From NCBI RefSeq assembly GCF_000015945.1, contig NC_009033.1, positions 1,440,001 through 1,472,000 on the forward strand: DNA of 32,000 nt. Reading direction: 5' to 3'. A program made the translations under genes and the position numbers. Positions within the stretch are counted from its first letter, which is position 1, and each line of letters opens with the position of its first letter. The DNA comes from Staphylothermus marinus F1 (lineage in GTDB: Archaea; Thermoproteota; Thermoprotei_A; Sulfolobales; Desulfurococcaceae). Positions 4,601-32,000 of the stretch are shown piece after piece. The notes under the pieces were generated by a model. The model was not told the DNA's origin. It searched no databases and worked only from the letters and a program-made list of their open reading frames with translations.

Positions 4601-4870
4601 TTTATCACTCGGTGTAAGACCATATTCTTCAACGAAATACATTGGTCCTTGAGGTGTTTCAGCTATCACGATCTTGACGAATGGTTTATATACATAGTAG
4701 CTCTCAATAATTCTCCAACTAGGATCACGTTTTGCAACCTGAATAGGCTCTGCAGGAACAATAATTGATTTAACAGCTTCAGAAACCTCTTCCTCTCCAG
4801 GAAGCTTTGTTAACCTCTCCTTCCTTTCCCTACGCGAAAACATCGATAAAATCTTCCTAAGAGACTCCAT
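1661..4870 (-). CDS. FlaI/VirB11/PilB-family type IV filament assembly ATPase, intein-containing (extein product about 589 aa)
   Basis: 1069-aa ORF with Walker A GGTGVGKTT, Walker B region DYIIVGEVRGEEA and His box TGHGGLSTIHA. FlaI-like N-domain (PMYFVEEYGLTPSDKEVLEKL). Divergently paired with a FlaJ/TadC-like gene. Confidence 0.9.
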   Translation of the reverse strand: MESLRKILSMFSRRERKERLTKLPGEEEVSEAVKSIIVPAEPIQVAKRDPSWRIIESYYVYKPFVKIVIAETPQGPMYFVEEYGLTPSDKEVLEKLTDILMDEIRPPTRPEDIKDLKGYVFKETERIADKYREKLGLVGARKIKLLYYIERNLLGYGPIDPLMKDPNIEDISCNGVNIPIYVWHKKYESIPTNITFIDEDYLNEFVMKMAHMAGKHISIAFPILDAMLPEKHRLAATFGREVSVKGPTFTIRKFRERPFSVTEIIQSGVINSLVAAYLWTLIEHGKTAMIAGGTGVGKTTMLNVISMFIRPGMKIVTIEDTPEINLPHPNWVQLTSRETYLVGTSSLGTNIRLFDLVKLSLRYRPDYIIVGEVRGEEAFVLFQAMASVSYDTPVLIRDPINKIHLVKIGEFIDKFYEEGEERTAKHVNGYYVLSHDGFQVVWKPIKYVLRHRTNEIYEIIYEGGGKLEATGSHSVFVLDPDTLDIVEKPVMLLNKGEYLVSFNGVKENKDHQTIDLIDLVSDYNDVYVDNIPSELKKHTGGRNPIPLKQYMILRKRVITKKNNSLIKLRRSKYTLPIRLVLDEKLAFLFGAYIANGCVKERRDKLICFTFGKSAKNIADKVMNIMYEKFNIKPFIDDRGTYIIYEYPHTLLAIIFEKLLGRKLEEKKMPEILWSSPKSVIRAFFEGLRAYSQRTLRRRYTSYTTANKNLAYQLLWLARFAGFYSVLKEEKEAGKNNGKTYYHVIVYLDQSYRKPNASERVPVKPILKLIKYTKPRTMPPELAYIKRREFISRKTALKALEWIRRDGSFTDFSREYLRKIESLINGDIIVLKIKDVRKKQYKGYVYDISVPITEAFFGGNIPILLHNTGHGGLSTIHAETLDYAIKRLTSPPMNIPPTYMKLMNTFIHLQRVIARIEKGVVRVRRRATIVQEVEDFGKYRTIAVWDPRTDQFKVNLEESLHLRDIAAKRGLELEDIIDEIYRKATVLNWMIYKNIFNVWDVSRIIFNYYYDPVSVYKRAVRELEEAGREAGVPTMVAPEEVASTEELVGGTKEMGEATKELFERTRELEK
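2273..3712 (-). mobile_element. 480-aa intein with a LAGLIDADG homing-endonuclease domain (residues 387-866 of the ATPase)
   Basis: Starts SVSYDTPVLI (Ser1, block A-like) and ends ILLHN, followed by Thr (+1). Two LAGLIDADG-type motifs: LAFLFGAYIANG and IRAFFEGLRAYS. Excision rejoins ...VLFQAMA|TGHGGLSTIHA, the contiguous conserved segment of this ATPase family. Confidence 0.8.
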
Positions 4871-5310: not shown

Positions 5311-7086
5311 ATGTCCTTTTGGGATTGGGTTTACAGGTATTTTGAGGGTTTAGGCAAATATATTCTTAGAATGTATCCGAACTTATCAAATGATATACGT
5401 AAGAGTGGGATGCATCTATATCCTGAAGTATATGCTTCTTTCATGGCTTTTATGTCTATCCTGATTAGTGGTGTGACTATTGTTTTAATAATATTGTTTG
5501 CAGTAGTGAAAATATATATTGTTTTACCTTTCCTTGTCCTAGTACCTTTCCTTACATATATTTTATTAGCGTATCTACCAGCTCTTATAGGAAGTAGTAG
5601 AGCCGGCGGGATAGAAGGAGAGTTCCCATATACAACGGCTTATTTAAGCATGATGGTTATGAGTGGTTTATCGCCGTATGTAGCGTTTGAGAGAATTACT
5701 CATGCAAGCAAAGTATTTACTAAATCAGCAGAGCTTAGCCAGAGATTTATATTATTAGTAAGAGTTCTAGGGAGGGATCCGTTAACAGCTTTCAGCATGT
5801 TAGCTCATAGAACACCTAGTCCAACTGCGAGAGACTTGTTAATGGGTTATGTAACAACTGTTCGTGCAGGCGGAGATGTAGCTGATTATTTGAATAAAAA
5901 AGCTAGACTATTATTCTCTGAACTACTTGTTAAAATGAAGATTATAGCTGATAGATTAGCTGGTCTTCTAGAAGCATATCTAGCTCTTGTCCTCTTATCA
6001 ATGATTAGTTTAACAGTCATGTACTTTGTAACAGTATCATTTATCTCCGCCGTCCCCTTTGGATTATCGCCTATAGGATTATTCTTAGTCCTCTACGTAT
6101 TAATCCCTATGATTTCGGGCATGATTATTTATTTAGCTGATATTACCCAGTATAAGGAGCCATGGGTTGATTATCGCCCATACATATTGTTTGGAGGCTT
6201 AACTCTTCCACTAGCGTTTTTCCTAGTATTTTTTGGAATGATTATTCCAAATATTCTACCGCCTGGACACCCGTTTAGGAGTAATGTCTTGGTTAAGGGA
6301 ATATATGATTTCCTTGTTTACCCAGCTGTAGCCTTTAATCTTCAACCATATATTTATCCATCAGTAGCTTTATCAATGATATTAATCACTGCTACCCTGC
6401 CAACAACAATCTATGCGGAAATAGTTGGAAGAGAATACAAAGTAGTAACTGGTATAACAAGGTTTCTACGTGACCTCGTAGAGATACGTAAGACAGGATT
6501 ATCTCCGGAGAGAAGCATTATTGAGCTTTCACGTAGAAACTATGGTGTATTCACAAAGTATTTAAAGAAGATGGCTCTCCAACTAAGCCTTGGGATCTCC
6601 TTGTCTAGGATAATACAGGAGTTATTCAAGAAAATAATTGTTTGGAGAGCAAAGGTATTATTATTCGTATTAACAGACACGATCGAGGTTGGCGGTGGAA
6701 GTGTTGAGATAATGGAGCATCTTGCATGGTTTGCTGAAAGTGTAGATGCTATTGAGGATGAGAAAAAGAAGAATCTCAGAACCCTCCTAATAGTTCCATA
6801 TATGGGTGGAATATTAACAGCAGCAACAGTAATTATGCTGGCAGCATTCATGGGCTCACTACAATTTGGTGCTGGAGGAGCATATTTTCAAGCCGCAGCA
6901 ACAGCGTTGCCAGCAATAGTTATAAATACTTATCTAATGGGTCTTGTAGCTGGAAAAGTATCATCGGGATCAATAGCTGCTGGATTCAAACACGCAATAT
7001 TTTTAACAATAGTTACACTCCTATTCTTCCTAGCATCACCACTATTCAACACAATGCTTGGAGGATTAACACAGCCAGTAACGTGA
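5311..7086 (+). CDS. FlaJ/TadC-like polytopic membrane platform protein of a type IV filament system
   Basis: 591 aa with many TM helices interleaved with two cytoplasmic helical domains, the T2SS-F-like architecture. Divergent from the ATPase and followed by pilin-like genes. TATA-like box about 35 nt upstream. Confidence 0.8.
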   Translation: MSFWDWVYRYFEGLGKYILRMYPNLSNDIRKSGMHLYPEVYASFMAFMSILISGVTIVLIILFAVVKIYIVLPFLVLVPFLTYILLAYLPALIGSSRAGGIEGEFPYTTAYLSMMVMSGLSPYVAFERITHASKVFTKSAELSQRFILLVRVLGRDPLTAFSMLAHRTPSPTARDLLMGYVTTVRAGGDVADYLNKKARLLFSELLVKMKIIADRLAGLLEAYLALVLLSMISLTVMYFVTVSFISAVPFGLSPIGLFLVLYVLIPMISGMIIYLADITQYKEPWVDYRPYILFGGLTLPLAFFLVFFGMIIPNILPPGHPFRSNVLVKGIYDFLVYPAVAFNLQPYIYPSVALSMILITATLPTTIYAEIVGREYKVVTGITRFLRDLVEIRKTGLSPERSIIELSRRNYGVFTKYLKKMALQLSLGISLSRIIQELFKKIIVWRAKVLLFVLTDTIEVGGGSVEIMEHLAWFAESVDAIEDEKKKNLRTLLIVPYMGGILTAATVIMLAAFMGSLQFGAGGAYFQAAATALPAIVINTYLMGLVAGKVSSGSIAAGFKHAIFLTIVTLLFFLASPLFNTMLGGLTQPVT

Positions 7087-7096
7087 GGTTTAAGAA

Positions 7097-7858
7097 TTGA
7101 GGGGGATCAGCGAAACAATATCCACCGTTATAATATCATCGGTAATTATAATGGTAAGTATAATGATATTCTACATAGCCACATATTCTCTAACAACAAC
7201 TATGCAGGTATCAGAGTATGGATACATGAAATCATCAATGATAAACATAGCTTCATCAATACCAGAAATAATTAAGGGAACAAGCATATCAATATCTGTT
7301 CCGAAGGGAAGCGTAGGAGTAGGATATAGCATTCAAAACAATATAGTTTATGAAGTAGATGTTCTCACAAGTTCTGGATGGAAGAATATAATAGTTGATG
7401 ATTCCCCATCAGCTATCGTGATTAGATCCTATAATGTAGTAGTCACTAGCAATAGGATCATCTATGGTATTAACAATCTAACCGTAAATGATATCGCCTT
7501 CATACCAACAATATGGGAGTACTATAAGGATGGAGCATCAATAATAAACTTCAACACATCTAGATTCTATATCCACATATACAAAGTCACAAATGGAACA
7601 TATACAGAAATATATATTAGAATCTACTATTTACAGCTAAGACCAAAATACATATCTGGCCCAAGAACAATCATGTTTGTACCCGGAGGAAAAGTAATAG
7701 AGGATCAAATAAACAATATTGAAGGACTCGTTATTAGAGAAATAAATAGTGTAACAGGTAAAACCATTCGTTCCTATGAACCATCTAAATTGTTCAGTCT
7801 AGGATATAAAGTAAATTTATTATTAAGCGTTGATCGATTATATGTGGTGATGACTTAG
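7097..7858 (+). CDS. pilin-like protein with a class III (prepilin-type) signal peptide
   Basis: N-terminus MRG|ISETISTVIISSVIIMVSIM fits the archaeal prepilin motif: K/R-G, then a hydrophobic helix with S..I.T.V.I. TTG start 10 nt after the platform gene, with a GAGGT Shine-Dalgarno-like motif. Many N-x-S/T sequons. Confidence 0.65.
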   Translation: MRGISETISTVIISSVIIMVSIMIFYIATYSLTTTMQVSEYGYMKSSMINIASSIPEIIKGTSISISVPKGSVGVGYSIQNNIVYEVDVLTSSGWKNIIVDDSPSAIVIRSYNVVVTSNRIIYGINNLTVNDIAFIPTIWEYYKDGASIINFNTSRFYIHIYKVTNGTYTEIYIRIYYLQLRPKYISGPRTIMFVPGGKVIEDQINNIEGLVIREINSVTGKTIRSYEPSKLFSLGYKVNLLLSVDRLYVVMT

Positions 7859-8367
7859 TGGCGACACCTGCTATAATTCATATGATCGGCACCTTAGCAT
7901 TAGTGATCGTATTAGCATTCGTGATACTACACGTATCAAGCACAATTACCGTAATGAAAAACGATGCCCTAGTTAATAATTTTAAGAGAATAGCTGATTC
8001 AGTTTCTACCCAGATCCTGTATGCTATAATGTGGCATAATAACTTGTCAATAAGACTGATGTATCCTCCACAAGCTGGGTATGGTCAACAATATAATATA
8101 ATAATAGGCACAGGAGCAGCTATAAGATCCCATTATAAAATATTCAATGTACCAAATGATAATACATTATATATAGTCATAACTACGCCGGATAACACTA
8201 TTCATGTAGAGAAAAAAATAATAGAAACCACAAATGGTTATACAACGATAACTATGGTAAACGATCCCATACTATTCGGTAGTTCAACAATTACTTACTT
8301 AGATATTAGAGTCGTTAACAATAATATATATGTGAATATAGTTGTTAAGGGGGAAATATATAGATGA
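7858..8367 (+). CDS. small secreted/anchored protein with an N-terminal hydrophobic helix (possible minor pilin)
   Basis: The GTG start overlaps the upstream TAG by 1 nt. N-terminus MATPAIIHMIGTLALVIVLAFVIL; the beta-rich remainder carries sequons. The prepilin motif is not canonical. Confidence 0.5.
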   Translation: MATPAIIHMIGTLALVIVLAFVILHVSSTITVMKNDALVNNFKRIADSVSTQILYAIMWHNNLSIRLMYPPQAGYGQQYNIIIGTGAAIRSHYKIFNVPNDNTLYIVITTPDNTIHVEKKIIETTNGYTTITMVNDPILFGSSTITYLDIRVVNNNIYVNIVVKGEIYR

Positions 8368-9509
8368 AAGAACTTATTGAATATGTTTTAGCTGCTTTAA
8401 TAATTGTTTCCTTCATACCCATATTTGATGTTATAGTCACCGATTTTTCAAGAACAAACCCCCCTATAATAGAGAGTAGTACCCTAGTATACATGTCAAG
8501 CGGTATAAGAGATGTTTTAACAAATATTTCTTCCCAAGGAAACTTCACGCCTCAATTAGTCGATATCGCGGGAGCTATTTCTTCTAGACTAAACATATCT
8601 AGAAATATAGGATATAATGTTAGAATAGTTTCTTCAGGAGTCAGTAAAATAAATGTTCAAGATAATAATATACAAGTATACACGACAAGTCCTGGAAAAC
8701 TATATGTATGCATAGTCTATAATGATCTATCATATAGTAACTACCAATTATATAAACCAACCACTACTTTAGCAAATGGAACATTTCTCTACACCATAAT
8801 CCCTTCCAGAACAGACATAATAGCAGTATCAGCAATTCTAGAAACAGGCGTAGCCAGATATATAGGATACTGGATCTCGGATAACATATACGAAGCACAC
8901 GCTTATAACGTTAATAACACAGTCACCATAGCAATACCCGACACAGTTCCACAACCAAACTACTATACAGTATCCGGTTTAGAAGCTATAGACGCTATAT
9001 TAATTTACTATACACAGGGACATTTCTATAATTACTCAATAGCTAGTGGTAGCTTTATAGTTAATCTAACATGGATCCAGTACTATTCTTATTATTGGGG
9101 TGCTGGATACTATAAACAATATTTCTCCAGATACATAGCATCTTACTATGATCAAACAACAATTGATGGAATAACTTATAGTCTGCATAAATTACAGAAT
9201 TATGTGGAAAAAGACACTCATTATATATTATACGAATATTATTCTGGGAACCTTATAATATACTATGATAGTATAGTAGGGACAGAATCTCGGTTCTTCA
9301 ATATTCAATATCCAATTTACAATTTAGTATTTATATTTCTCAGAGATGCGGATAATAATATATACTATGCTGTAATTTATCCGCATGAACTATCTATTGG
9401 TGAACCAATACCTTCTAACTGGGTCACATATAAAACAACATATACGGCGAGAATAGGAATGGTTAACTATGACATAATAATAACTGTGTGGAGGAGGTTT
9501 CAGAGATGA
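8364..9509 (+). CDS. large Tyr/Asn-rich pilin-like or filament-associated protein
   Basis: ATGA overlap with the upstream gene. N-terminus MKELIEYVLAALIIVSFIPIF. 381 aa, very Tyr-rich (YYSYYWGAGYYKQYF), with many N-x-S/T sequons. No recognisable domain. Confidence 0.55.
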   Translation: MKELIEYVLAALIIVSFIPIFDVIVTDFSRTNPPIIESSTLVYMSSGIRDVLTNISSQGNFTPQLVDIAGAISSRLNISRNIGYNVRIVSSGVSKINVQDNNIQVYTTSPGKLYVCIVYNDLSYSNYQLYKPTTTLANGTFLYTIIPSRTDIIAVSAILETGVARYIGYWISDNIYEAHAYNVNNTVTIAIPDTVPQPNYYTVSGLEAIDAILIYYTQGHFYNYSIASGSFIVNLTWIQYYSYYWGAGYYKQYFSRYIASYYDQTTIDGITYSLHKLQNYVEKDTHYILYEYYSGNLIIYYDSIVGTESRFFNIQYPIYNLVFIFLRDADNNIYYAVIYPHELSIGEPIPSNWVTYKTTYTARIGMVNYDIIITVWRRFQR

Positions 9510-9892
9510 AGTCGCAGGCTATTGTTATATCAGCATATCTAGCATCAATACTTATAATATTATTGATAATTACCTACTATATCAACATCCTACCCTATTC
9601 TACGACTATAAATATTCGTACACGCAACTACGATGTATACTCGATCATATACTCAAAAGTTTCTTGGACAGCGCGAGAACTAGCATATACTATTATCGAT
9701 GAGTTAAAGGCTAGCTACGTTGTTGTAAATATAACTGTTATCAACATTACTGATCGCCAAGTTAACAGTACCGACTACTATTCAATCATTCCGAATAACC
9801 AAAATGTTACCTTAATCTATGAATACAACGTTTCCAGGCTTGATGATAATGGTTTATTCTATAGTTACTATATAAAGGTGGGGTTTAGATGA
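9506..9892 (+). CDS. small pilin-like protein
   Basis: The preferred start is ATG 9506 (MKSQAIVISAYLASILIILLII). It forms an ATGA overlap with the upstream stop and follows GGAGGAGG at 9491-9498. The track start at 9488 (GTG) is less likely. Confidence 0.55.
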   Translation: MKSQAIVISAYLASILIILLIITYYINILPYSTTINIRTRNYDVYSIIYSKVSWTARELAYTIIDELKASYVVVNITVINITDRQVNSTDYYSIIPNNQNVTLIYEYNVSRLDDNGLFYSYYIKVGFR

Positions 9893-11361
9893 AGGCTCAA
9901 CTACCCGTAGTAATAGCTATAGTTATATTGGGAGGTTTAATAATAGCCAGCTTATTCTATGTTACATCAATCACACTATATACTAAATCCCTCAGCAAAG
10001 GCACGGTTAAGAATGAATGGGACCTCATAGATCAAGAACTAGACACATTGGATCTAGTTGCACTAAAATATGCTAGTATGAAAGCCTATAAAGAGTTTAG
10101 TTCATCTTTTGACACTATATATAATGAGATAAGCTATACTCTATCTCTCGAGGATAGAAGTGCAATATATTATTCGGACTTTTCAACAGATAATACAGCT
10201 GGCCTAGTAATTATAGCGGATAATTATTATGTTGATACAAATAAGCATGTCTTAGTGCTTGAAAGCAGTAGCGATTTTGCCATAGCATATGTTAATATAC
10301 CTATAAGCGGTATTTTTTATGATCAGGTATATGTAGCTTATAGAGGAACAGCTGACCAGCACATAGACTGGTTTCAATTACGCATCCGCAGATCTAGAAT
10401 ACAGTATATGTATATACTGGGCAATGACATTAATTCTCAAATGCTTGAAGTAAGATATTATAGGAGAGGAGTTTATAGATTGGTGAAAACATCGGAGTCA
10501 GTACCTGATCCTTATGTTTATTATGGTGGTTATGATTATATTACAGGAACACTTAGCTTAGACGTGTTTGATAGAATTAATAATGTTTGGGCTAGTATAA
10601 CTTATGATAGGAGATCAACTTCTCAGAATTTATACTATGGTGTTGGAGGATATTATCATGTTGAAATAGATAAGCTTGTATTATCGGTTAATAGGGATCC
10701 CAAATATATATATGTTGAAGGCTTATATCCTGGGTGGAGAGTCGTTGTTTCTAATGGAACAAATAGTTATGAGGGAGTTGCTGATTCTTCGGGTTTAGCA
10801 ATGGTCTTTTTCCCTGATCTAATCTTTAGAAATGGAGTTATCAGTGTATATGATGATACAGGTGAATTGGTGATCTCTAAGGCTTTCGATGTTATTGTTG
10901 GAGGTGATAGGTATGTTTTTGGAGCCGGTAACTTGGCGGGTTATGATTATTATCAAGTTCTAGAGAATTTTAAGCAGTCTTTAAACAATGCTAGTTTAGA
11001 GGCATTATCTGTTCTTAGGAAGAGTGTTTTAGAAGTAATTCATAATTGGATATCTTATAAGATACGTGATGGATACTCTATTAATATTACTTATTTCAAG
11101 CCATTCTATAATATTACATTGTGGAATAATGGCTATATATCTAATGGTAGGGGATCGATCGGGTTTGAAATAAAATATTTTATAATAGCACCGGATGGAG
11201 AGTATAGAGAGTTTGTTAAAAGCATAAATGCAACATACTTTATGTCTTTTGATTTAGTTTATACGGGTTTATGCGTTGTATTTGCTTTATGGGAACAGGG
11301 AGGTTCTTGTTCCTTGATCATTTCAAAATATTATATTAAGCCCCTTCCTCCTCTGGTTTAG
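9889..11361 (+). CDS. large (490 aa) pilin-like or filament-associated protein
   Basis: ATGA overlap with the upstream gene. The N-terminus MKA|QLPVVIAIVILGGLIIASLFY resembles prepilins with Gln at +1. Tyr/Asn-rich, with no recognisable domain. Confidence 0.6.
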   Translation: MKAQLPVVIAIVILGGLIIASLFYVTSITLYTKSLSKGTVKNEWDLIDQELDTLDLVALKYASMKAYKEFSSSFDTIYNEISYTLSLEDRSAIYYSDFSTDNTAGLVIIADNYYVDTNKHVLVLESSSDFAIAYVNIPISGIFYDQVYVAYRGTADQHIDWFQLRIRRSRIQYMYILGNDINSQMLEVRYYRRGVYRLVKTSESVPDPYVYYGGYDYITGTLSLDVFDRINNVWASITYDRRSTSQNLYYGVGGYYHVEIDKLVLSVNRDPKYIYVEGLYPGWRVVVSNGTNSYEGVADSSGLAMVFFPDLIFRNGVISVYDDTGELVISKAFDVIVGGDRYVFGAGNLAGYDYYQVLENFKQSLNNASLEALSVLRKSVLEVIHNWISYKIRDGYSINITYFKPFYNITLWNNGYISNGRGSIGFEIKYFIIAPDGEYREFVKSINATYFMSFDLVYTGLCVVFALWEQGGSCSLIISKYYIKPLPPLV

Positions 11362-12423: not shown

Positions 12424-12728
12424 TTACCTATTCTCTATGTATAAGTGAATACTGTAGCAAAGTTCTAATAAAACTTAATATTTATCGATGACCGATGCGG
12501 ATAAAACATTAGTTTCCATATTTAATGATCGAGTTTTTCGATAAACAATCATTGATGCATGCCCCGTTTAGACTTGGGCATAGTTTCAATATTCTTATCT
12601 GGGAGGAGAGGTTTTCTATTAGAAAAAAGCCTTTTTGAAGCGTGGAAATAGTGTTTTCTGGGATCAAATTTAATAACCATGAAGTAATAAGGATCATGTA
12701 GTTAGAAAGTATTTGTAGGGTGTTGTTC

Positions 12729-12926
12729 ATGAGTGAGAGGAAAACGGCTAAGGAGATAATATTAGAGGTGCTTAAGAAGGAGAAGAGACCATTGTCTCCT
12801 AAGGAGATTCAGAAAATAACAGGGTTAAACTATAATACTATTCGTGGTAGACTTCAAGATTTGAAGAAGGCAGGACTCGTTGTTAGAACTGAGAAGGGCT
12901 GGATATATAAGGAGTATGCTAAGTAA
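12729..12926 (+). CDS. small winged-helix DNA-binding protein
   Basis: MSERKTAKEIILEVLKKEKRPLSPKEIQKITGLNYNTIRGRLQDLKKAGLVVRTEKGW is a classic wHTH layout. The ATG at 12729 is preferred over the track's GTG at 12720. Confidence 0.6.
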   Translation: MSERKTAKEIILEVLKKEKRPLSPKEIQKITGLNYNTIRGRLQDLKKAGLVVRTEKGWIYKEYAK

Positions 12927-12980
12927 AATTGATTTATACCTATATAATCCAAATAATTATTTTTTAAAACATTGTTTCCC

Positions 12981-13352
12981 TTAATGTATTGCGGGGATAT
13001 TTTCTAGTACAATATATGCTATGATCGAGTAAAGTATTGTTAATAGTAGGTCTCTCAACAAGTTTTTCTTGTTAACACCTGTAATGCTTATCTTCATCAA
13101 TATTATTCCAGCAATATTTGTTAACGCATAGCCTGCGCTGAATAATATTGCGAAATCAATTCTTATCAAGCTATGTATAAGGACTGCGAACAAGTATGCT
13201 AATGGAATATTTATGAATAAATCATTCCACCATGAGAGAGGAGATAATATATATCCTGCTAAGAACACTGCTGACCTAACCACTACTTTTAACTTACCTA
13301 AATATTTAAGCGATAACAACCCAATGATCCCATTATAACCTTGTATATCCAC
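12981..13352 (-). CDS. small integral membrane protein, function unknown
   Basis: 123 aa with 3-4 hydrophobic helices and an SPLSWWNDLFINIP motif. Family not recognised. Confidence 0.5.
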   Translation of the reverse strand: MDIQGYNGIIGLLSLKYLGKLKVVVRSAVFLAGYILSPLSWWNDLFINIPLAYLFAVLIHSLIRIDFAILFSAGYALTNIAGIILMKISITGVNKKNLLRDLLLTILYSIIAYIVLENIPAIH

Positions 13353-13464
13353 CCGTATTACACATGTATTACCGGGTTCTATTATAAGGAGTAAGATAGA
13401 TCAGCTATCATGGCATAAACAATATAAAGCTTTCTGATCATTAGGTATTACCAGCCAGTACATA

Positions 13465-15048
13465 ATGGTTGATGTAGCCATGTTAAGACATAAAGATGTT
13501 GCGGCAAGATACGAGCACAAGTTTACATGGAAAGAAATAAGTGATCCAATATATGGATACACATATTTCAACAGGGAAATAGAAGAGAAAATTATAAACA
13601 GCCTCATACTTCAAAGACTAAGATATATATTACAACTACAAACAGCCCACCTAGTATATCCTGGAGCAGTTCATACACGTTTCCAACACGCAGTAGGAGT
13701 AATGCATCTAGCCGGCTTAATGGTTGAAGACATTATTTCAAAAATACTAATATATTATGGAAAAGAATACTTGGAAGACTATGATCCAGACTCATTAATA
13801 CAAGCAGTAAGACTTGCAGGACTACTCCATGATGCAGGACATGCTTGTTTTGGACATGCATTCGAAGAAGCACTACTATGGGGCAACAATAGGGTTCCCA
13901 TAGAAGTTAATAATCATGAAAAAATAGGCTATAAAATAGTGCAACTATTACTGGAGGATAAGATTAGAGAATTCGAAGACACATATGGACTGGGTCATTT
14001 ATACGATATATTAATGAGTATATTGGACCCCGATGAGCCCAGGGATAAAATACTCTTAATCATGAGGTGGTTGATAAAGGATAGCTTGTATCCAGCAGAT
14101 ATTCTTGATTTCCTACGTAGAGACAGCTATTATACTGGAACAAATGAGTATGGATACATTGATTATGAGAGACTCTACAAGAATACTTATCCATACTTTG
14201 AAAACAATAAACCTCTCCTCCTACTAGACAGGAATACTTGGGGAGAGTTTAGAGCTTATCTATATGCTAAAGCAAACATGTTTGAACACGTATATTATCA
14301 TAGTGTTAACAGAGCTTTCGACAAATTATTAAAAACTATTCTTAGAAAATTAGATGAAGAACTAGATCTTACTGGTAGAGTAAATGATCTAGCCAAGGGC
14401 GATCCATATGGGTACTTGGCTCTAACAGATGTTAAAATGTATGATGTAATGCTTGAAAAAGCACTTAATACTAATGGTGAATTATCCAAGCTAACCTATA
14501 GGTTATTGATTGAGAGGAAACCAGAATGGAAGAGAGTGGGTAGAGAATATATTTTAAGCAGTTATCAAGGATCCTTAGCAGTTAAGCATATATTAAAACT
14601 AGTATTCGATAAAGAATATCGTAGAAGAATCGCTGATAAGATCAGGGAAGAAGTATATGATTCCTTAAAGGATAAAGGAGTTGATGAATCAGATATATGG
14701 ATTGATGTACTAGATATATCACCTGTTCCAAGAAGCATTCTAATGCCTGGAAAAAGTGGTGGTGCAAACCTCTTAACACTACATATTGGGAAGAAGAAGG
14801 ATAAACAAATCATTAAGGATAGAGACGTATTCTTAGTCGAGGAGGGTATACCGTTAATGATAATATTCAGAGCATATATTAGGAGAGGACTACACAGACT
14901 AGAATATGAATCAATAGTTACCGAGAAAATAAGGCAAACAGTAAATTCAGAACTAGGAATAAATATTGACGAGTACAAGAAGATAATCAAAGAAATATAT
15001 AGTGAATTATCCCCCGAAAAATACGAAGAAGAAAAAATAACCGTTTAA
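13465..15048 (+). CDS. HD-domain phosphohydrolase of the SAMHD1/dGTPase-like group (COG1078-type), putative dNTP triphosphohydrolase
   Basis: HTRFQHAVGVMHLAG and LAGLLHDAGHACFGHAFEE match the H...HD...GH.PFSH-type metal and substrate motifs of this family. 527 aa. Confidence 0.8.
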   Translation: MVDVAMLRHKDVAARYEHKFTWKEISDPIYGYTYFNREIEEKIINSLILQRLRYILQLQTAHLVYPGAVHTRFQHAVGVMHLAGLMVEDIISKILIYYGKEYLEDYDPDSLIQAVRLAGLLHDAGHACFGHAFEEALLWGNNRVPIEVNNHEKIGYKIVQLLLEDKIREFEDTYGLGHLYDILMSILDPDEPRDKILLIMRWLIKDSLYPADILDFLRRDSYYTGTNEYGYIDYERLYKNTYPYFENNKPLLLLDRNTWGEFRAYLYAKANMFEHVYYHSVNRAFDKLLKTILRKLDEELDLTGRVNDLAKGDPYGYLALTDVKMYDVMLEKALNTNGELSKLTYRLLIERKPEWKRVGREYILSSYQGSLAVKHILKLVFDKEYRRRIADKIREEVYDSLKDKGVDESDIWIDVLDISPVPRSILMPGKSGGANLLTLHIGKKKDKQIIKDRDVFLVEEGIPLMIIFRAYIRRGLHRLEYESIVTEKIRQTVNSELGINIDEYKKIIKEIYSELSPEKYEEEKITV

Positions 15049-15161
15049 TAATAATAGACACCATTACTTTAATAAGCACTCAATTCTAGGGATTTAATAA
15101 CATGTTCTGCTATTATTAATTTATTTGAAGACATAAATACATTGATATCCTAAAGCGATAA

Positions 15162-15375
15162 ATTGAATATGTTAGAAATAGTGGTGGACAAGCTCTAAGT
15201 ATTGATGCTGTACATATTAACGATAAACTTGTTACTGTTCAAAGCATTTACGATGCTGATGATCCTGATAATTTCAAATCACTATGAAATAGGATATGAT
15301 CCAGGCACAGACAAAATTACTACATGGACTTTTCACTCAGGATACAAAGTAACAATCTGGTATATCAAACTATAA
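15162..15375 (+). pseudogene. possible gene remnant: two coding-like segments in different frames
   Basis: Frame A 15162-15287 encodes ...SGGQALSIDAVHINDKLVTVQSIYDADDPDNFKSL* with no start codon. Frame B continues to 15375 as EIGYDPGTDKITTWTFHSGYKVTIWYIKL*. Alternatively frame B is a 40-aa ORF from ATG 15253. It lies in an otherwise ORF-free ~590-bp gap. Confidence 0.2.
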
Positions 15376-15641
15376 TATCGTCACAATATTGCTATAATGG
15401 AAAAATCTAGTGTAGAGCAGAGAAAATGACATGCTCTGTAGAAAGATTATTTTTCACATGTAAAGTTTTCATTTCCTATAATGTTTCTTTGGGATAAAGA
15501 TTATTGTGTTCCAAGGTATATTTACTTGATTTGTATGTGTATGGCAATTTTCTAAGAGTTTCGGGAATGTGTTGAACTTATAGATTTAATTGTCTCTTAC
15601 TCCATAATTATTCCTATTAGAGTGAGTAGAGCTGATGTGGT

Positions 15642-15905
15642 ATGGGTAAGATTGTTTTGTCTTTGAAACATAAGCCTGAGGAGTATAGTGTTTTGATAAA
15701 GGTTTATGGTGGTGATGGTGCATTAGTTAAGGAGGAAAGCATTGATCATATTAAACAGGTTATTATTAAAGCTGGAGAAGTTAGATTGTCTAGGCAATTG
15801 TCTCCGGAACCCCTTGTAGTAGTTATTGATGCTGAGAAACCATCTATAATGGTTAAGGAGGGAACACTGCTTTATATACGTGACGAGGGAGCTGGAAAAC
15901 AATGA
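15642..15905 (+). CDS. small hypothetical protein (87 aa), first gene of a four-gene cassette
   Basis: ATG start with a TATA-like box about 30 nt upstream. Its stop overlaps the next start as ATGA. No recognised motif. Confidence 0.55.
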   Translation: MGKIVLSLKHKPEEYSVLIKVYGGDGALVKEESIDHIKQVIIKAGEVRLSRQLSPEPLVVVIDAEKPSIMVKEGTLLYIRDEGAGKQ

Positions 15906-23832: not shown

Positions 23833-24282
23833 ATGAAGGCTATTTCACCCGTTATTGCTACTGTTATTATTGTTGCTGTTGCTATTGCTATTAGTATTGC
23901 TGTAGCATTATGGATAACAGGATTAACATCTAGTTTTACAGGTGTTGAGAAATTAGAGGTGGTAAATGCTTATGCTGAATTAGATACTGCTAATAATCAG
24001 TGGATTGTGCATTTACATGTTAAGAATACTGGGACAAAGGCTGCTACAATAGACGATATATTCATTAATAGCAAACCTTACTCAAGCTATAATACTGCCA
24101 CCAGTACCTATGTTACACTATCGGAAACATTACCTAAAACCCTAAATCCCGGAGAAGAATTAACAGATTTACAAATAACTATTAGTACGAATACCCCCGG
24201 TTTTGCTAGCGGCCAGACAGTTAGCATAGTTATTCATACTGCTAGTGGTGGACAATACCCAGCAACAGTAACATTACCTTAA
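23833..24282 (+). CDS. archaeal type IV pilin (class III signal peptide, Pilin_N/DUF1628-like N-terminus)
   Basis: MKA|ISPVIATVIIVAVAIAISIAVALW is a near-consensus archaeal pilin N-terminal domain (K-G/A then SPVIATVLLI). The remainder is a beta-rich Thr/Asn-rich globular domain. Confidence 0.8.
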   Translation: MKAISPVIATVIIVAVAIAISIAVALWITGLTSSFTGVEKLEVVNAYAELDTANNQWIVHLHVKNTGTKAATIDDIFINSKPYSSYNTATSTYVTLSETLPKTLNPGEELTDLQITISTNTPGFASGQTVSIVIHTASGGQYPATVTLP

Positions 24283-24761: not shown

Positions 24762-27068
24762 TTGGGTAAGTTGTCAATGATTATTAGGGATCAATTGATC
24801 CTAAGCATAGACAATGATCTCCGGGATCTTATAAAGGCTAGAGATATAGGTGTTATCTATGTTTATCGTGAAGAAACAGGTGAGCCAGAGCCTGGTCCTA
24901 GTATTGAGGACATAGATTTACCTGAGCCATTACTTGAAGCTTTGAAGAAGAGGGGGATTAGGAGGCTTTATCGTTTCCAATACGATGCATATAAGAGTAT
25001 ATTGAATGGCGAAAACGTTGTTATAACAGCTGGTACGGGAACAGGCAAGACGGAGGCATTCCTGCTCCCAATCCTATCAAAAATATATGAGAAGAGAACT
25101 CCTAATCCGCAAGCAATGCTTGTATATCCGACAAAAGCTTTGGCAAGGGACCAGCTTCAAAGAATAAATGATTATCTAGGCTACGGTGTTTTCTCTGCAG
25201 CAGTATATGATGGTGATACTCCGCGTAGAATTAGGCAGAAAATATCTGCTAATCCACCCGATATAGTAGTTACTAATCCAGACATGATACATGTAGGCCT
25301 TGTTCTCAGCCCTACTATTAGGAGATTCGTTAAAGCTTCCCAGTTCATGGTTATAGATGAGCTACACGTATACGAAGGCGTTTTTGGATCAAATGTTAAA
25401 TGTGTTTTCGAAAGAATCAATAAGTATCGGAGAAATAATCCACCACAATATATTGGTTCATCTGCAACAATTGGTAATCCAAGAGAACATGCTGAAACAT
25501 TGTTTGGTGTCCCAGTAAAGGTTATTGAGGGACCGTTGAGAAGGAGGGGGATAGCTTATCATGTCCTTGTATCAGCTGGCAAGCTTAGTAGGTGGACGGT
25601 TACTGCGGCGTTAGCTTCTGTTCTTGCTCGTCGAGGACTTAGATTCATAGTATTTGTTGATAGTCAGCAAATGGCTGAATTAATAGCTAGGATTGCTTGG
25701 AGAAGCTATGGTGTAGATATAATGGTTCATAGAGCTGGTTTACCGGCTGATGAGAGGAAAATGATTGAGTCAAAGCTTAGAGCCGGAGAGATCAGTGGTG
25801 TCGCCGCTACACCAACGCTTGAACTAGGAATAGATATTGGGTTCCTCGATGCAGTAATTATGGCTGCTCCACCCCCTAGCTTCGCAAAATATTTGCAGAG
25901 AGCTGGTAGAGCTGGGCGTAGAGGTAGGAAAGGATATGTTTTCACAGTTTTAGCAGATGATCCTATTGATGCATACTATGAGCGGAATCCTAAGAGGTAT
26001 TTTGAACAAGAAATCCCGCCACTATACATGGATCCTGAGAACGAAGAGGTTTTAAGGATTCATTTATTGGCTCTCCTATTAGAGCAGGGGAGGATTAGAA
26101 GAGACGAGTTGAAGAGGGCTTGGCTACGTGTTGCTGAGAGGCTTAGATATGAGAGACTAGTTGCTTGGGTTGGACCATATATTTATCCAAACTATAGGTT
26201 GGCGAGAAAAATTTTCATGGAATATATGAGTATTAGAGGTAGTGGTCCACAGGTTGTTATATATGATGTTGATGAGAAAAACATTGTAGGTTATAGAGAG
26301 CTTCCACAAGCAGTTCTCGACCTACATCCTGACGCGGTGTATTTGCTTAATAGAAGAGTATATAAGTCTATAGAAATCGATGTTGATAAGAAGATTGCAC
26401 GAGTTAAGAGATTACCAGATGATACACCATACTATACTAGGCCACTCTATACTGTTGATTTGGTTGATTACAGTATATTAGCTTCTAGAACAAGTAGTAG
26501 AGGCATACCATTAGCTTATGCATGGGTAAAGCTCAGCATAAATGTTGAAGGATACATTGTTAGAAATTATTGGGAAACAGAAAAAGCCGGTATAAAGTAC
26601 TGGTTTGATCACCCTATAACATATACTTATAATACAAAAGCACTACTATTAAAATATCCAGAGAATCCCGAATGGGATTATATGAGCAATGCCGAAGCTT
26701 TTCACGCAATAGAACACGCATTAATCTCTGCTGCCAGACCAGTATGTGGAGCAGCATTAGGTGAAATGGGGGGAATAAGTTATCCAAGCGGAGACATAGT
26801 AATATATGATGGAGCACCAGGAGGATCAGGCTTAGCCAAACTATTGTTCGAAAGATTTGAAAAAGCAGAAGAGATAGCTTATGAAATAGTATCAAAATGC
26901 GACTGCGAAGATGGGTGTCCAAGATGTATATATAGTCCATACTGTGGAAACAATAACCAAGTATTATCCCGTAGAAAAGCAACATATGTTCTAGGAAACA
27001 TATTGAAGAGAGGAGCAGTAAAGGTTATGGAACCCATTAAGAATAGATATGGTAAACCAATTGTCTAG
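24762..27068 (+). CDS. COG1205-type DEXH-box helicase with a C-terminal metal-binding Cys-cluster domain (DUF1998/MZB), MrfA/YprA-like
   Basis: Motif I AGTGTGKT, Ia TKALARDQ, II VIDELHVYEG, III SSATIGNP, V TPTLELGIDIG, VI QRAGRAGRRG. The C-terminus has HAIEHALISAA and CDCEDGCPRCIYSPYCGNNNQVLSRRKA. The start is TTG 24762 or ATG 24777. Confidence 0.85.
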   Translation: MGKLSMIIRDQLILSIDNDLRDLIKARDIGVIYVYREETGEPEPGPSIEDIDLPEPLLEALKKRGIRRLYRFQYDAYKSILNGENVVITAGTGTGKTEAFLLPILSKIYEKRTPNPQAMLVYPTKALARDQLQRINDYLGYGVFSAAVYDGDTPRRIRQKISANPPDIVVTNPDMIHVGLVLSPTIRRFVKASQFMVIDELHVYEGVFGSNVKCVFERINKYRRNNPPQYIGSSATIGNPREHAETLFGVPVKVIEGPLRRRGIAYHVLVSAGKLSRWTVTAALASVLARRGLRFIVFVDSQQMAELIARIAWRSYGVDIMVHRAGLPADERKMIESKLRAGEISGVAATPTLELGIDIGFLDAVIMAAPPPSFAKYLQRAGRAGRRGRKGYVFTVLADDPIDAYYERNPKRYFEQEIPPLYMDPENEEVLRIHLLALLLEQGRIRRDELKRAWLRVAERLRYERLVAWVGPYIYPNYRLARKIFMEYMSIRGSGPQVVIYDVDEKNIVGYRELPQAVLDLHPDAVYLLNRRVYKSIEIDVDKKIARVKRLPDDTPYYTRPLYTVDLVDYSILASRTSSRGIPLAYAWVKLSINVEGYIVRNYWETEKAGIKYWFDHPITYTYNTKALLLKYPENPEWDYMSNAEAFHAIEHALISAARPVCGAALGEMGGISYPSGDIVIYDGAPGGSGLAKLLFERFEKAEEIAYEIVSKCDCEDGCPRCIYSPYCGNNNQVLSRRKATYVLGNILKRGAVKVMEPIKNRYGKPIV

Positions 27069-28394: not shown

Positions 28395-28685
28395 TTATGC
28401 TTCTGATTCAACTGGTTCTACAATATTTGTTAATGCTTCTATTTCATCCAGTAAATCATCTACATACTCGTCTTCATGATAATCAATTCCCAGCTCTTCT
28501 GCAATATGTTTCTTTATTGCTTTAAAACCTATCAGCAATAATAGGTCCTTCTGTGTCTTCACAGGTTTAGATAGGATCTCAGCCTCTTGGGCAACAATGT
28601 CTTCAAGCATTAACAAATATTTATGCTCGATAAAACCAGCTAACTCAATGCTTCTATCATATATTTCGCTCTGCTTAGTAGGCAT
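28395..28685 (-). CDS. small acidic hypothetical protein (96 aa)
   Basis: ATG start with a strongly acidic C-terminus (DYHEDEYVDDLLDEIEALTNIVEPVESEA). Divergent from the PIN-protein gene across 285 bp. Confidence 0.5.
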   Translation of the reverse strand: MPTKQSEIYDRSIELAGFIEHKYLLMLEDIVAQEAEILSKPVKTQKDLLLLIGFKAIKKHIAEELGIDYHEDEYVDDLLDEIEALTNIVEPVESEA

Positions 28686-28973: not shown

Positions 28974-30617
28974 ATGTCTAAAGAAAATATTTCATTTGTA
29001 GATGTTTTAAAGGAGAAAATAATGTCTGGTTTTTATCCAAGTATATTAGTTGTAGATAAGTATCCATGGATCACTCCTACGATAATAGGTAGGTTAGCTG
29101 AAGAACTAGGTATTGATTTATTCGTTATCCTTACTAGTCAGCATGTCGTTCAATCGGTTGAGCAGAGTCTCCAGCATATTAAGGAGGATGTTGAGGATTT
29201 AGGCGCGATTATTCTTCCAGACTATGTGTTTGGTCAGTCTTTAGTAAAGGATAATGTTTTTGATACGGCGTTTACTCTTAACAATGTATTTAGTAAGATA
29301 AGTGATCAAGTGGAGAAAATAGTAGTTGATTTATCGGGTAGTGATGGAGCAATAGCTGCAACAACAGTTTACTCAGTCAAGAAAATACTTGGCGATAAAG
29401 CAGTATTCACAGTTGTAGACACTATTCCATTATATGGAATACCTGCTTATCCAGGTAGTCCTAGATGGCTCCACAAAGTATACGTATATGGAGATGCAGA
29501 TATTAGGAAGAAGGGGTCAATAGTTGATGATTACCCAAAAAACATTGAGTGGAGAGGTAGTAGGGGAATATATATTGCTATATCAAAATTATTCAATACA
29601 TTAACAAGATGTGGTTTCATAGAAACATACCATAATAGCAGGCGATACATGCCCGGTGAAAACAGTAAGTTAGAAGCATGGATAGAAACAATTGGTGCAT
29701 TAGGGGAGAAGCGCAGGCTCTTAATGATTGAGGAGCTGAAAGGCCCTGATCAAAACACTAGTAACATGTTATATAATGCTTGGAAACAAATTTCTGAACT
29801 ATTAGATATGACTATTGGCGATAAAGATAAGCAGAGCATTGATAGATTAGTTATGCAGATTCAAAGATATGTTGGCGCAGCTGATCTGATAATTAAAGAA
29901 TCTGCTTCATCTAGTCCCCAATGGTTTGATCATGAAGGCGAGAAGCTTCACAGAATAATTCTTAGATCAACAGGTGAAAGAAACAAATTAGCGGTTGTTC
30001 CAGACACTAATCTATTCTATCAAGGACTACATATGGTATTGCTTAAAGCAAGTATAAGACAAGGTTCTCCCTGGAGCACTCTACGGAATATCTCGGTATA
30101 TATTCCAAGATGTGCTGAAACAGAAATTAACGGTAAAGTTGCAGAGACTAATCCTGATGCAGGGGGATTACAGCGTGTATCATATATTATGGCTTTACTA
30201 GCTAATAGAGCATTGCTCGAGACAAAATATTATTATGACGCTAAAACATTATCGGCAACGGCACAGCCTTGCGAAGCATCAATGGCTGTTGAAGCACCGA
30301 ATCTCCCGGAACACAGAATATTATTGATAACAGCTGATCACAAAGCATTTACTGCTTGGCAAACACTAAATGTTTGTAGAGGAAAAGTTGCATGCGCATA
30401 TATTGGACACAGCGATAAACCATTAGATACAGATACAATATATGGTAGATTCTATGCCAGCATAGCCTCCAGCATATTATTATATGTATCCAGCTTATTC
30501 CTCCCAGTAACAGTTAAGGGATCAAGTGGCGAAGCTAGATTAATCGTTAAAAACTTAAAAGGCTCATCAGCACCAATAGTTAGCGTTCATAGAATAAGGA
30601 ATGACGAGAAATTATAA
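28974..30617 (+). CDS. multidomain protein: N-terminal alpha/beta (Rossmann-like) domain, helical middle region, C-terminal PIN-domain nuclease
   Basis: PIN signature spread over residues ~340-470: LAVVPDTNLF (Asp 1), YIPRCAETEINGKV (Glu), CEASMAVEA, and RILLITADHKAF (the ..iTnD.. motif). The N-terminal domain alternates beta and alpha elements and has a loop KIVVDLSGSDGAIAATTVYSV. The ATG at 28974 is preceded by GGAGGGA. Confidence 0.7.
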   Translation: MSKENISFVDVLKEKIMSGFYPSILVVDKYPWITPTIIGRLAEELGIDLFVILTSQHVVQSVEQSLQHIKEDVEDLGAIILPDYVFGQSLVKDNVFDTAFTLNNVFSKISDQVEKIVVDLSGSDGAIAATTVYSVKKILGDKAVFTVVDTIPLYGIPAYPGSPRWLHKVYVYGDADIRKKGSIVDDYPKNIEWRGSRGIYIAISKLFNTLTRCGFIETYHNSRRYMPGENSKLEAWIETIGALGEKRRLLMIEELKGPDQNTSNMLYNAWKQISELLDMTIGDKDKQSIDRLVMQIQRYVGAADLIIKESASSSPQWFDHEGEKLHRIILRSTGERNKLAVVPDTNLFYQGLHMVLLKASIRQGSPWSTLRNISVYIPRCAETEINGKVAETNPDAGGLQRVSYIMALLANRALLETKYYYDAKTLSATAQPCEASMAVEAPNLPEHRILLITADHKAFTAWQTLNVCRGKVACAYIGHSDKPLDTDTIYGRFYASIASSILLYVSSLFLPVTVKGSSGEARLIVKNLKGSSAPIVSVHRIRNDEKL

Positions 30618-30629
30618 ACATTTTTACTA

Positions 30630-30640
30630 TTCATAAATAC
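30630..30640 (+). promoter_or_regulatory. TATA-like box for the Tfx-like gene
   Basis: TTCATAAATAC lies about 20-27 nt upstream of ATG 30657, suggesting a leaderless mRNA. Confidence 0.25.
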
Positions 30641-30656
30641 ATTGTGTGAGCAAAAC

Positions 30657-31148
30657 ATGAAGGAGAAGTATGGTTTCCTGACAAAGATACAGCTATTATC
30701 TCTATACTATAAATCTAGAGGCTATAGTTATCGTAGAATAGCTGAGATAATTGGTACAAGCCATCAAAACATAGCAGTAGCTTATAGGAGAGCATTGAAG
30801 AACATAGAATTATCTGAAAAAACAATTCTCTACTATAAACTTTCCACAGCAAAATTCATAGCACTTATTAATAAAGGAACACATTTAGCAGAGATACCAA
30901 AATTAATTATTGAAGAATGTGATAAGAGAGGAATTAAGCTAAGAGCAGACTTTACATTAATCTTCAAACAAATACGTTTCTACACCCCTCAATGCGTGTC
31001 TGGTTCACGGCTTGCTGGAGAAATAATAGTGGTTGTAGATGAACATGGATTTATCCAAGTATATTCTTACCGGGAAGTAAAAGATATTATTAAGGATATA
31101 GAGAAAACCCTTGGCAAACAAATAATCAGTATAAAGCATGGATACTAG
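30657..31148 (+). CDS. tfx: Tfx-family DNA-binding transcriptional regulator
   Basis: FLTKIQLLSLYYKSRGYSYRRIAEIIGTSHQNIAVAYRRALKNIELSEKTI is the sigma-70 region-4/LuxR-like HTH typical of Tfx, followed by the family's C-terminal domain. The ATG at 30657 is preferred over the track's TTG at 30642. Confidence 0.7.
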   Translation: MKEKYGFLTKIQLLSLYYKSRGYSYRRIAEIIGTSHQNIAVAYRRALKNIELSEKTILYYKLSTAKFIALINKGTHLAEIPKLIIEECDKRGIKLRADFTLIFKQIRFYTPQCVSGSRLAGEIIVVVDEHGFIQVYSYREVKDIIKDIEKTLGKQIISIKHGY

Positions 31149-31260
31149 TTAAAACAACACCTTACATAGCCATATATATATTGCTGTGTATTATTAGTAG
31201 TTCTTATAAGAGCATATAATCATAATGGCATAATAAGAAGAACTCTAATGGTGTGTATAG

Positions 31261-32000
31261 ATGAGCTATTCTAAAGAATTATATGATAAAATAATGGAGA
31301 ATCCATGGCTTACTATTTATGATTGTCTTAGAAGCAAATGTGATTTCTCCGAAATAGGAAGAATACTGAAAGATCTCTTATTGAAGCCTATGAATACTAA
31401 GGAATACATAGTTGGTTTAGAATTATTAAAAGCTATTAAGAGCCAAGCACCAGTAGAAATACTGTTTCGATCAATATCTATGGTTGTCGATGATAAAGTA
31501 ATAAAGAAAATTCTAGAAGATACAAAACCAGACAAGATCTTAGAGGAATATAAGAAAAACTATTTCAAAGGAATGGGCCTCATAACTCTATTAGAGATCT
31601 ATCCGTTTCTCAATCTACGGGATGAACTAGCTGAGAGAGTAAAGGAATTATTGAGGGAGGCACCGGAGAAGATAGATAATGAAAAGGATCTTAGGGAATT
31701 TTTGAGAGCACTAACATTTGGTCCATTATCTGTTCTCTCACCAGCTAAGTTAAAAGATGTACTGGTATTTATTAGAAATAACCTCAGCAATAAACCACTA
31801 TGTCTCCAAACAAAAACTGACATCATATCTATGATTGTAGATAATTATCCTCCTCAAATACTAGGTGAAAATATTGAAATAATCGATATCATAGCGGATA
31901 TTCTAAGAGAAGTTGCTGAAAACACTATATTGCTGGCATCAAGTGAACTAGATAGAGCGGTCAATATTTATAGTGATATAAATATATTCATGTCCAAGAT
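31261..32000 (+). CDS. helical hypothetical protein, 3' end outside the window (not in the supplied ORF track)
   Basis: My own translation: ATG 31261 directly follows an in-frame TAG, and the frame stays open for 246 codons to the window edge (MSYSKELYDKIMENPWLTIYDCLRSK...AENTILLASSELDRAVNIYSDINIFMSK). The Leu/Glu/Lys/Ile pattern suggests an all-alpha protein. Confidence 0.6.
   Translation, partial: MSYSKELYDKIMENPWLTIYDCLRSKCDFSEIGRILKDLLLKPMNTKEYIVGLELLKAIKSQAPVEILFRSISMVVDDKVIKKILEDTKPDKILEEYKKNYFKGMGLITLLEIYPFLNLRDELAERVKELLREAPEKIDNEKDLREFLRALTFGPLSVLSPAKLKDVLVFIRNNLSNKPLCLQTKTDIISMIVDNYPPQILGENIEIIDIIADILREVAENTILLASSELDRAVNIYSDINIFMSK

Follow-up and report, generated by a model that had tools for sequence, protein, structure and literature searches.

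Here, we provide structural and comparative genomic evidence that an open reading frame (ORF) on the chromosome of Staphylothermus marinus F1 encodes a sensor-nuclease fusion that almost certainly represents, in Staphylothermus, the catalogued CARF-HTH-PIN family of archaea, CARF_m12 (HTH, helix-turn-helix). The gene, hereafter CARF-PIN, lies on the forward strand of a stretch of 32,000 nucleotides (NC_009033.1, positions 1,440,001 to 1,472,000; the window, in whose numbering coordinates are given unless a locus is named). It occupies 28974..30617 with the stop codon included, as delineated from the ORF itself, a PADLOC match and its homologues. Of the two alternative starts, TTG 28971 and ATG 28974, the latter matches the homologues and yields a product of 547 amino acids (aa), one residue fewer than the 548 aa given in an earlier note that was made from the letters of this DNA alone. 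The ORF is a genuine, conserved gene subject to strong purifying selection. Its orthologue in S. hellenicus (locus L028; 549 aa) sits in a gene order identical to that of the window, and comparison of the two gives a dN of 0.041 and a dN/dS of 0.108 over the whole gene.

Assignment to CARF_m12 is based on the PADLOC-DB profile PDLC01979 (CARF_m12--CARF_PIN), which covers residues 5-544 of the protein (profile positions 3-532 of 533; E = 2.3e-281) and also matches all eight of the eight homologues taken from the neighbourhood set. The earlier note had regarded the gene as part of a candidate novel module. The novelty is not supported, as CARF_m12 has its own PADLOC-DB model and its members were listed in the 2014 CARF census by Makarova et al., where Smar_1499, Shell_0945, TCELL_0861 and DKAM_0747 appear as "CARF_HTH_PIN_archaeal_new" (PMC4012209 Suppl. 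1). Smar_1499 is recorded there with 547 aa and Shell_0945 with 549 aa; each of the four entries is flagged with a predicted toxin domain, and Smar_1499 and DKAM_0747 are additionally flagged with an HTH middle domain and with "no" for a CRISPR-Cas neighbourhood (PMC4012209). The catalogued members, such as Smar_1499, share with the 547-aa protein the architecture, the taxon and the absence of CRISPR-Cas nearby, Smar_1499 has the same length, and no difference is detectable. The family has thus been catalogued since 2014, probably including this very protein, and the outcome of the genome scan is a correct domain call on a catalogued family and not a discovery. The same broad 2014 family includes ST0035, Ahos_0373, Pyrfu_0473 and Hbut_1444 (PMC4012209). 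In the 2025 CRISPR-Cas classification, the CARF+PIN families Crf6, Crf10 and Crf11 are predicted sensor-effectors of cyclic oligoadenylate (cOA), and the minor clade m12 was not renamed (PMC12669027 Suppl. Table 2).

CARF_m12 is a narrowly distributed family that is known from computation only. Its relatives, which all come from uncultured Thermoprotei or Desulfurococcaceae, form 43 clusters at 90% identity; among 1.84 billion representatives, no more than three full-length clusters at 50% identity were retrieved. Every source annotates the members as "hypothetical protein", and our literature searches on CARF_m12 and on Staphylothermus with type III systems returned nothing useful. The 547-aa protein matched no Pfam or NCBIfam family at E<=1, including no curated PIN family. 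Its sole remoter matches are two CARF_m3 proteins, P0052 and P0053, both through the PIN region; the CARF_m3--CARF_PIN models of PADLOC match the region 334-508.

The structure of the full-length protein was predicted with AlphaFold2 from an alignment of 32 homologues, with high confidence (pLDDT 91.1, pTM 0.92). Its best whole-chain Foldseek match in the Protein Data Bank (PDB) is SiRe_0806 of Sulfolobus islandicus (E = 5e-10, TMt 0.60), for which an apo structure (9jxw) and a structure with cyclic tetra-adenylate (cA4; 9jxx) were released in 2025. The matches that follow are nearly all cOA-binding CARF proteins, namely Can2, Cad1, Cam1, Sis0455, Sso2081/Crn1, Csa3, Csm6 and Cdn1. Sequence searches of the PDB with the 547-aa protein, the family profile, a PIN-only profile and the CARF_m3 protein P0053 found nothing real, so the link to SiRe_0806 is structural only. 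Structures of human SAMD9 also occurred among the weaker full-length matches (E about 1e-3, probability 0.3-0.44), a similarity that is probably generic and due to the Rossmann-like domain.

In this model, the N-terminal domain (residues 1-175; 28974..29498, forward strand) is a CARF-type sensor fold, as judged from predicted structure, Foldseek matches and conservation. CARF domains are defined by a Rossmann-like core of six strands, of which strands 5 and 6 are paired as a hairpin (PMC4012209). The confidently modelled domain has six strands at residues 22-27, 49-55, 79-82, 116-119, 143-148 and 169-172 with helices between them, which bears out the alternating beta/alpha domain proposed in the earlier note, and its Foldseek matches are CARF proteins: the probability is 1.0 to the CARF domains of Cam1, Sis0455, Sso2081 and Csa3 (root-mean-square deviation 3.6-4.7 over 132-146 columns). 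The likeness to the DxTGG/DxTHG loop of CARF domains that had been noticed in the sequence is likewise supported. D119-x-S121 directly follows strand 4 and fits the [DN]x[ST] part of the CARF signature, D119 being invariant and position 121 being S or T in 32/32 sequences. Further invariant residues of the domain among the 32 homologues are R40, E43, E44, D83 and the segment P157-H167, which is part of a nearly invariant loop at residues 153-170 (IPLYGIPAYPGSPRWLHKVY). A motif resembling this loop is carried by the CARF_m3 proteins P0052 and P0053. At the end of strand 1, where a polar residue (S/T) is typical of the CARF superfamily, position 28 is D, N or S in most homologues and L, H or Y in some.

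The C-terminal domain (residues 336-480; 29979..30413, forward strand) is modelled as a PIN nuclease fold whose acidic tetrad, D344/E382/E434/D455, is intact. The four PIN motifs quoted in the earlier note are all present, and the tetrad is invariant in the 32 homologues at identities down to 36%, as are D344/T345/N346 (the DTN of PDTN) and E382/E384 within these motifs. The tetrad residues are spaced by 38/52/21 residues, similar to the spacing in VapC-type PIN domains. The PIN domain is more strongly conserved than any other part of the protein, with 38 invariant positions and a dN/dS of 0.046 (0.108 over the whole gene). When residues 328-547 were modelled alone (pLDDT 83.5), Foldseek retrieved bona fide PIN domains, including those of AF0591 (1o4w, TMt 0.61), SMG6/EST1A (2dok/2hwx) and PAE0151 (2fe1), together with T5 flap endonuclease, the PIN-bearing archaeal RuvB-like helicase 5f4h, a PIN protein of the small-subunit processome and again SiRe_0806. 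Profile comparison with hhalign against the PIN domain of the CARF_m3 protein P0053 gave a probability of 96.7 and aligned the tetrad with D-E-D-D there. The earlier note had the protein end in the PIN domain; the fold was recognized correctly, but its core stops at about residue 480, beyond which lies a C-terminal extension of moderate conservation (residues 481-547; 30414..30614, forward strand) with one helix and three strands in the predicted secondary structure. Between the CARF and PIN domains, residues 176-335 (29499..29978, forward strand) form a middle domain with a mixed sheet and helices in the AlphaFold2 model. An HTH was assigned to this part of the family on the basis of residues 205-346 of DKAM_0747, which matched the MarR protein 3bj6 with an HHpred probability of 95 (PMC4012209 Suppl. 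1 and 2). A scan of the middle domains of ten members against the Pfam HTH families gave no match at E<=10, and the published MarR-like assignment was therefore not reproduced.

The genomic setting was compared across 24 genome loci, two contigs and the S. hellenicus chromosome by tblastn, ORF clustering and profile searches. Several clades share a recurrent block of a helicase, a 255-aa membrane protein, a 104-aa protein, a 96-aa protein and CARF-PIN, often with TldD/PmbA beyond it. Other neighbours include phosphate and amino-acid transporters, ABC ATPases, a ROK kinase, seryl-tRNA synthetase, pyridoxal phosphate enzymes, an M55 peptidase and radical SAM proteins. The impression of an accessory island in the earlier note is not upheld by this comparison: gene order is conserved across the family and rich in housekeeping genes, and the small flanking proteins of no assigned function are conserved syntenic genes. 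The conserved unit is CARF-PIN alone and not the three-gene module of sensor-nuclease, Tfx regulator and helical protein that had been proposed, as the Tfx gene stands beside it in Staphylothermus only and the helical protein, here named hel291, in two clades (about 10 of 25 loci). The gene upstream of CARF-PIN is divergently oriented in the window, with a gap of 285 nucleotides (nt), and this arrangement varies elsewhere. One metagenome-assembled genome, JAADCY01, has three contigs (L012, L013 and L015) that each carry a CARF-PIN copy; because two of them share upstream synteny, strain mixing in the bin is probably the explanation and not paralogy.

As the most likely mechanism, we propose that CARF-PIN is a ligand-gated RNase that responds to cOA made in trans by a type III CRISPR system. 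Identity and mechanism taken jointly, we consider this rather probable; the mechanistic part for itself, which is drawn by analogy, appears about evenly balanced to us. Briefly, we infer that the protein, presumably dimeric, would bind a cyclic oligoadenylate through its N-terminal CARF domain. Drawing the analogy to SiRe_0806, the nearest structure that has been solved, we take cA4 as the best guess for this ligand. The bound ligand would activate the metal-dependent RNase of the C-terminal PIN domain, and the activated nuclease would degrade RNA and thereby slow or stop growth during infection. As the gene sits at a stable, housekeeping-rich chromosomal position, the signal would be supplied in trans, by a type III CRISPR Cas10 whose gene lies elsewhere in the genome. 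The earlier note had already seen the logic of a CRISPR-ancillary or abortive-infection effector in a sensor-driven PIN RNase. The CARF and PIN folds and the intact tetrad agree with this idea, but the gene is not located beside cas genes. Two genomes of the family are consistent with a signal made at a distance, as D. kamchatkensis encodes Cas1, Cas3 and Cas10 and S. hellenicus encodes a Cas10 with a GenBank ID number about 415 apart from that of Shell_0945 (PMC4012209 Suppl. 9); this co-occurrence is taken from the 2014 table only and covers three genomes.

The third of these genomes belongs to several observations that weigh against a cOA-activated CRISPR effector. Thermogladius 1633, which carries TCELL_0861, is listed with Cas1, Cas3 and Cas4 and without Cas10 in the 2014 table (PMC4012209). 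In the CARF signature [DN]x[ST]xxx[RK], the family lacks the basic residue, as position 125 (+6 in the signature) carries G, S or A throughout and never K or R. Some accepted CARF families lack this residue as well, and there its absence was taken as a hint of a different ligand (PMC4012209). CARF-PIN furthermore looks vertically inherited and diverges in step with its housekeeping neighbours, a behaviour unusual for a defence effector: identities are 56% for CARF-PIN, 68% for the helicase and 66% for PmbA in locus L016, and 40%, 57% and 49%, respectively, in locus L025. The earlier note was right that the window holds neither cas genes nor a CRISPR array, and it holds no tRNA or Rfam match either. 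This extends to the relatives, as the number of CRISPR arrays was zero in 26 loci (398 kb) and the window, and no cas gene was present among the clustered and annotated neighbours; a PADLOC scan of neighbours listed the 25 commonest families, so that a singleton cas gene may have escaped it. Among the families listed, the scan of 149 neighbouring ORFs gave only generic helicase and ATPase cross-matches to Cas3, Mad and AriA models. We found no study showing ligand-dependent activation of a CARF-PIN protein; the only test that our literature searches retrieved, with ST0035, was negative, since ST0035 cross-linked weakly to cA4 and had no cA4-induced RNase activity (PMC6546367). These searches also found no paper describing SiRe_0806, whose cA4 binding is supported by the titles of its PDB entries only.

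Such observations lend themselves to other readings. As the main alternative, CARF-PIN could be a lineage-specific regulated RNase that works independently of CRISPR, with a CARF domain that senses an endogenous or non-cOA nucleotide-derived signal, for instance of stress or RNA damage, and a PIN domain that processes or degrades cellular RNA in the normal physiology of Desulfurococcaceae. We regard this as possible yet doubtful. It would account for the conserved position among TldD/PmbA, an MrfA-type helicase, tRNA synthetases and transporters, the divergence that tracks the neighbouring housekeeping proteins, the lack of CARF-PIN relatives on viral contigs and plasmids, the very narrow distribution in three full-length clusters among 1.84 billion representatives, the census entry of no CRISPR-Cas in the neighbourhood, the missing basic residue of the signature and the gene in Thermogladius 1633 with no Cas10 in the 2014 census. 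However, the closest structures are all cOA-binding CARF proteins, with SiRe_0806 crystallized together with cA4, other genomes with the gene encode Cas10, and no alternative ligand or synthase was identified. Effectors of cOA can moreover act in trans, so that distance from cas genes is weak evidence. Because the basic signature residue is missing and the gene occurs in a genome without Cas10, one may also envisage CARF_m12 as a vertically inherited, core-like sensor RNase, not a CRISPR accessory, that responds to a non-cOA or endogenous nucleotide signal and is tuned or localized by lineage-specific partners coupled to it in translation, namely hel291 or a membrane protein; this elaboration seems improbable to us. 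It is quite unlikely, too, that the protein terminates or regulates the signal, be it as a CARF ring nuclease, as a cOA sponge or as a Csa3-like DNA-binding regulator acting through the proposed winged HTH, with the PIN domain as an auxiliary. In favour of such roles, the CARF fold matches include Csa3, a regulator, and the ring nucleases Sis0455 and Sso2081/Crn1, the 2014 census reports an HTH middle domain, and ST0035 lacks cA4-induced RNase activity. But the similarity to ring nucleases goes no further than the common CARF fold, the scan of ten middle domains gave no HTH family, and the PIN domain with its invariant acidic tetrad is the most strongly conserved part, which argues for catalysis.

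We give a very low probability to a toxin-antitoxin-like pair, with the PIN nuclease restrained or partnered by hel291 from the downstream gene or, in other clades, by an unrelated membrane protein. Its appeal lies in the genes downstream: hel291 occurs only beside CARF-PIN, in nine loci and S. hellenicus, in Thermogladius the two genes share 4 nt at the CARF-PIN stop or are at most 5 nt apart, and an unrelated 270-aa membrane protein overlaps the stop in L018 and L019. Yet both partners are missing from most clades, CARF-PIN and hel291 are kept apart in the clade of the window by a Tfx gene that has a TATA-like box of its own, hel291 has no similarity to known antitoxins or anything else, and a large partner in downstream position is unlike VapB. 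Finally, the earlier note had also compared the loop LSGSDG with the SGGxDS motif of PP-loop enzymes, and this loose resemblance is all that speaks for an N-terminal PP-loop ATP pyrophosphatase in place of a CARF domain. The PP-loop follows strand 1. In the 547-aa protein, the motif lies after strand 4 and its G and S are not conserved in the family (DLTMTTG, DISASSG and DTTFVSS occur instead), PP-loop enzymes are absent from the significant fold matches, which are CARF proteins, and Pfam and NCBIfam gave no match, so that fold and motif position refute this reading with next to no doubt.

Compared with known systems, the cOA-activated CARF effectors (the HEPN RNases Csm6/Csx1, the nucleases Can1/Can2/Card1, the deaminase Cad1 and the membrane effector Cam1) likewise fuse a CARF sensor to an effector and presumably share the logic of ligand activation. 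The 547-aa protein differs from these characterized proteins in that its effector is a PIN domain and its gene is not beside cas genes. With SiRe_0806, the best match to both the whole-chain and the PIN-only model, it has in common a CARF domain at the N-terminus and a PIN-like domain at the C-terminus, whereas identity is 12%, no sequence-level match exists and SiRe_0806 has 411 aa compared to 547. CARF_m3 (Crf10-Crf11; P0052 and P0053) has the same domain order and a homologous PIN domain (hhalign probability 96.7; PADLOC E = 3e-12), and shares with CARF_m12 the DTN, CxxxEI, PCE/D and T(A/G)D motifs as well as a G-x-PYP-x-PR-like loop after the CARF core. The CARF domains of the two families, however, cannot be aligned by sequence, and identity is below detection outside the PIN domain. 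CARF_m3 members range from 414 to 555 aa, and ST0035 adjoins a type I-A cas locus (PMC4012209), whereas CARF_m12 genes are not beside cas genes. VapC-type and stand-alone PIN proteins (AF0591, PAE0151 and the SMG6 PIN) have the same fold, four acidic residues and the DTN motif; in contrast to these, the 547-aa protein is multidomain, has no Pfam PIN match and lacks an upstream VapB-like antitoxin. As a compact and highly conserved family away from cas genes, with a confident model and a distant relative solved with bound cA4, CARF_m12 is a reasonable target for asking if PIN nucleases are switched by cyclic oligoadenylates and if some CARF sensors operate outside CRISPR immunity.

Downstream of CARF-PIN, the window encodes a Tfx-family HTH regulator of 163 aa (30657..31148, forward strand; 168 aa if started at TTG 30642), as correctly recognized in the earlier note. 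Both curated families match above their cut-offs (PF14601 TFX_C, E = 9e-23, 80.5 bits with a cut-off of 27; TIGR00721, 66.7 bits with a cut-off of 60.25). The gaps of 39 and 112 nt given for this region are right if Tfx starts at ATG 30657. A T5 run (30621-30625) and a TATA-like CATAAATA (30632-30639) read between the CARF-PIN stop and Tfx suggest that Tfx has its own promoter. Adjacency of Tfx and CARF-PIN is confined to the Staphylothermus clade (the window, L001-L003, L005 and L028), and a Tfx homologue in L025 is 4 kb distant from the CARF-PIN gene.

The orphan all-helical protein hel291 follows at 31261..32000 (forward strand), where the window ends inside the gene and includes its 5' part, 246 of 291 codons; the full length is available at L001:3428-4303. 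It had been described as a large helical protein running past the window, which is correct except for its size, as the protein is complete with 291 aa in the near-identical contig L001 and hence not large. hel291 was present in nine loci and S. hellenicus (about 10 of 25 loci, two clades), always downstream beside the CARF-PIN gene: after Tfx in Staphylothermus and directly after CARF-PIN in Thermogladius, there with a 4-nt overlap with the CARF-PIN stop (L021) or at most 5 nt from it. Searches against Pfam, PADLOC and the PDB found no relative. A weak match of the partial form to Csx1/Csm6 (E = 0.023) was gone with the full-length protein, and a relationship to these proteins was rejected. 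In another clade, the gene downstream of CARF-PIN encodes a protein of about 270 aa with membrane helices at its N- and C-terminus. It starts 1-4 nt before the CARF-PIN stop at L018:11611-12456 and L019:11608-12426 and 7-55 nt after it at L006:4835-5644 and L007:10620-11423, which suggests translational coupling to CARF-PIN of a partner different from hel291. The downstream c25 protein of other clades was considered as a diverged hel291 and rejected, as it is a membrane protein without similarity to hel291. Neither hel291 nor the membrane protein of about 270 aa stands beside CARF-PIN in most clades.

Upstream, a 96-aa acidic helical protein, p96 (28395..28685, reverse strand), has no family match and is mentioned for context only; this syntenic gene lies within two genes upstream of CARF-PIN in 14 loci, and its orientation flips between clades. 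Just past the window end, hel291 is followed by an LDcluster4/SLOG gene (LOG-like, nucleotide-processing; L001:4435-4971). This gene recurs one to three genes downstream of CARF-PIN in about ten loci of clades with at least 53% identity (including L002, L006-L009, L019 and L028), and the adjacency may stem from inherited gene order or reflect a connection with nucleotide signalling.

The window is otherwise an ordinary archaeal chromosome, including a K+ channel, a biotin ligase and TldD/PmbA. A DEAD/DEAH helicase with an MrfA Zn-binding domain (DUF1998) at 24762-27068 (forward strand) matches the defence model BrxHI (E = 6.5e-61); as its synteny with TldD/PmbA is conserved across the family, it is probably a repair helicase with a housekeeping role that does not belong to BREX. 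At 1661-4870 (reverse strand), a 1069-aa ATPase of the T2SSE secretion family (type II/IV) contains an intein whose homing-endonuclease domain is of the LAGLIDADG type. A membrane partner resembling T2SSF is encoded at 5311-7086, and the several ORFs of no assigned function after it (7097-11361) may constitute an archaeal pilus or adhesion locus. A 149-aa ORF at 23833-24282 (forward strand) has a hydrophobic N-terminus resembling an archaeal pilin or class III signal peptide, and a short imperfect tandem repeat with periods of 15 and 24 (23852-23903) lies in the part that encodes its hydrophobic segment. A 527-aa HD-domain protein at 13465-15048 (forward strand) weakly matches a dGTPase model (E = 6.7e-6), and its gene is flanked by stretches without long ORFs at 12424-13464 (about 1 kb) and 15049-15901 (about 0.85 kb).

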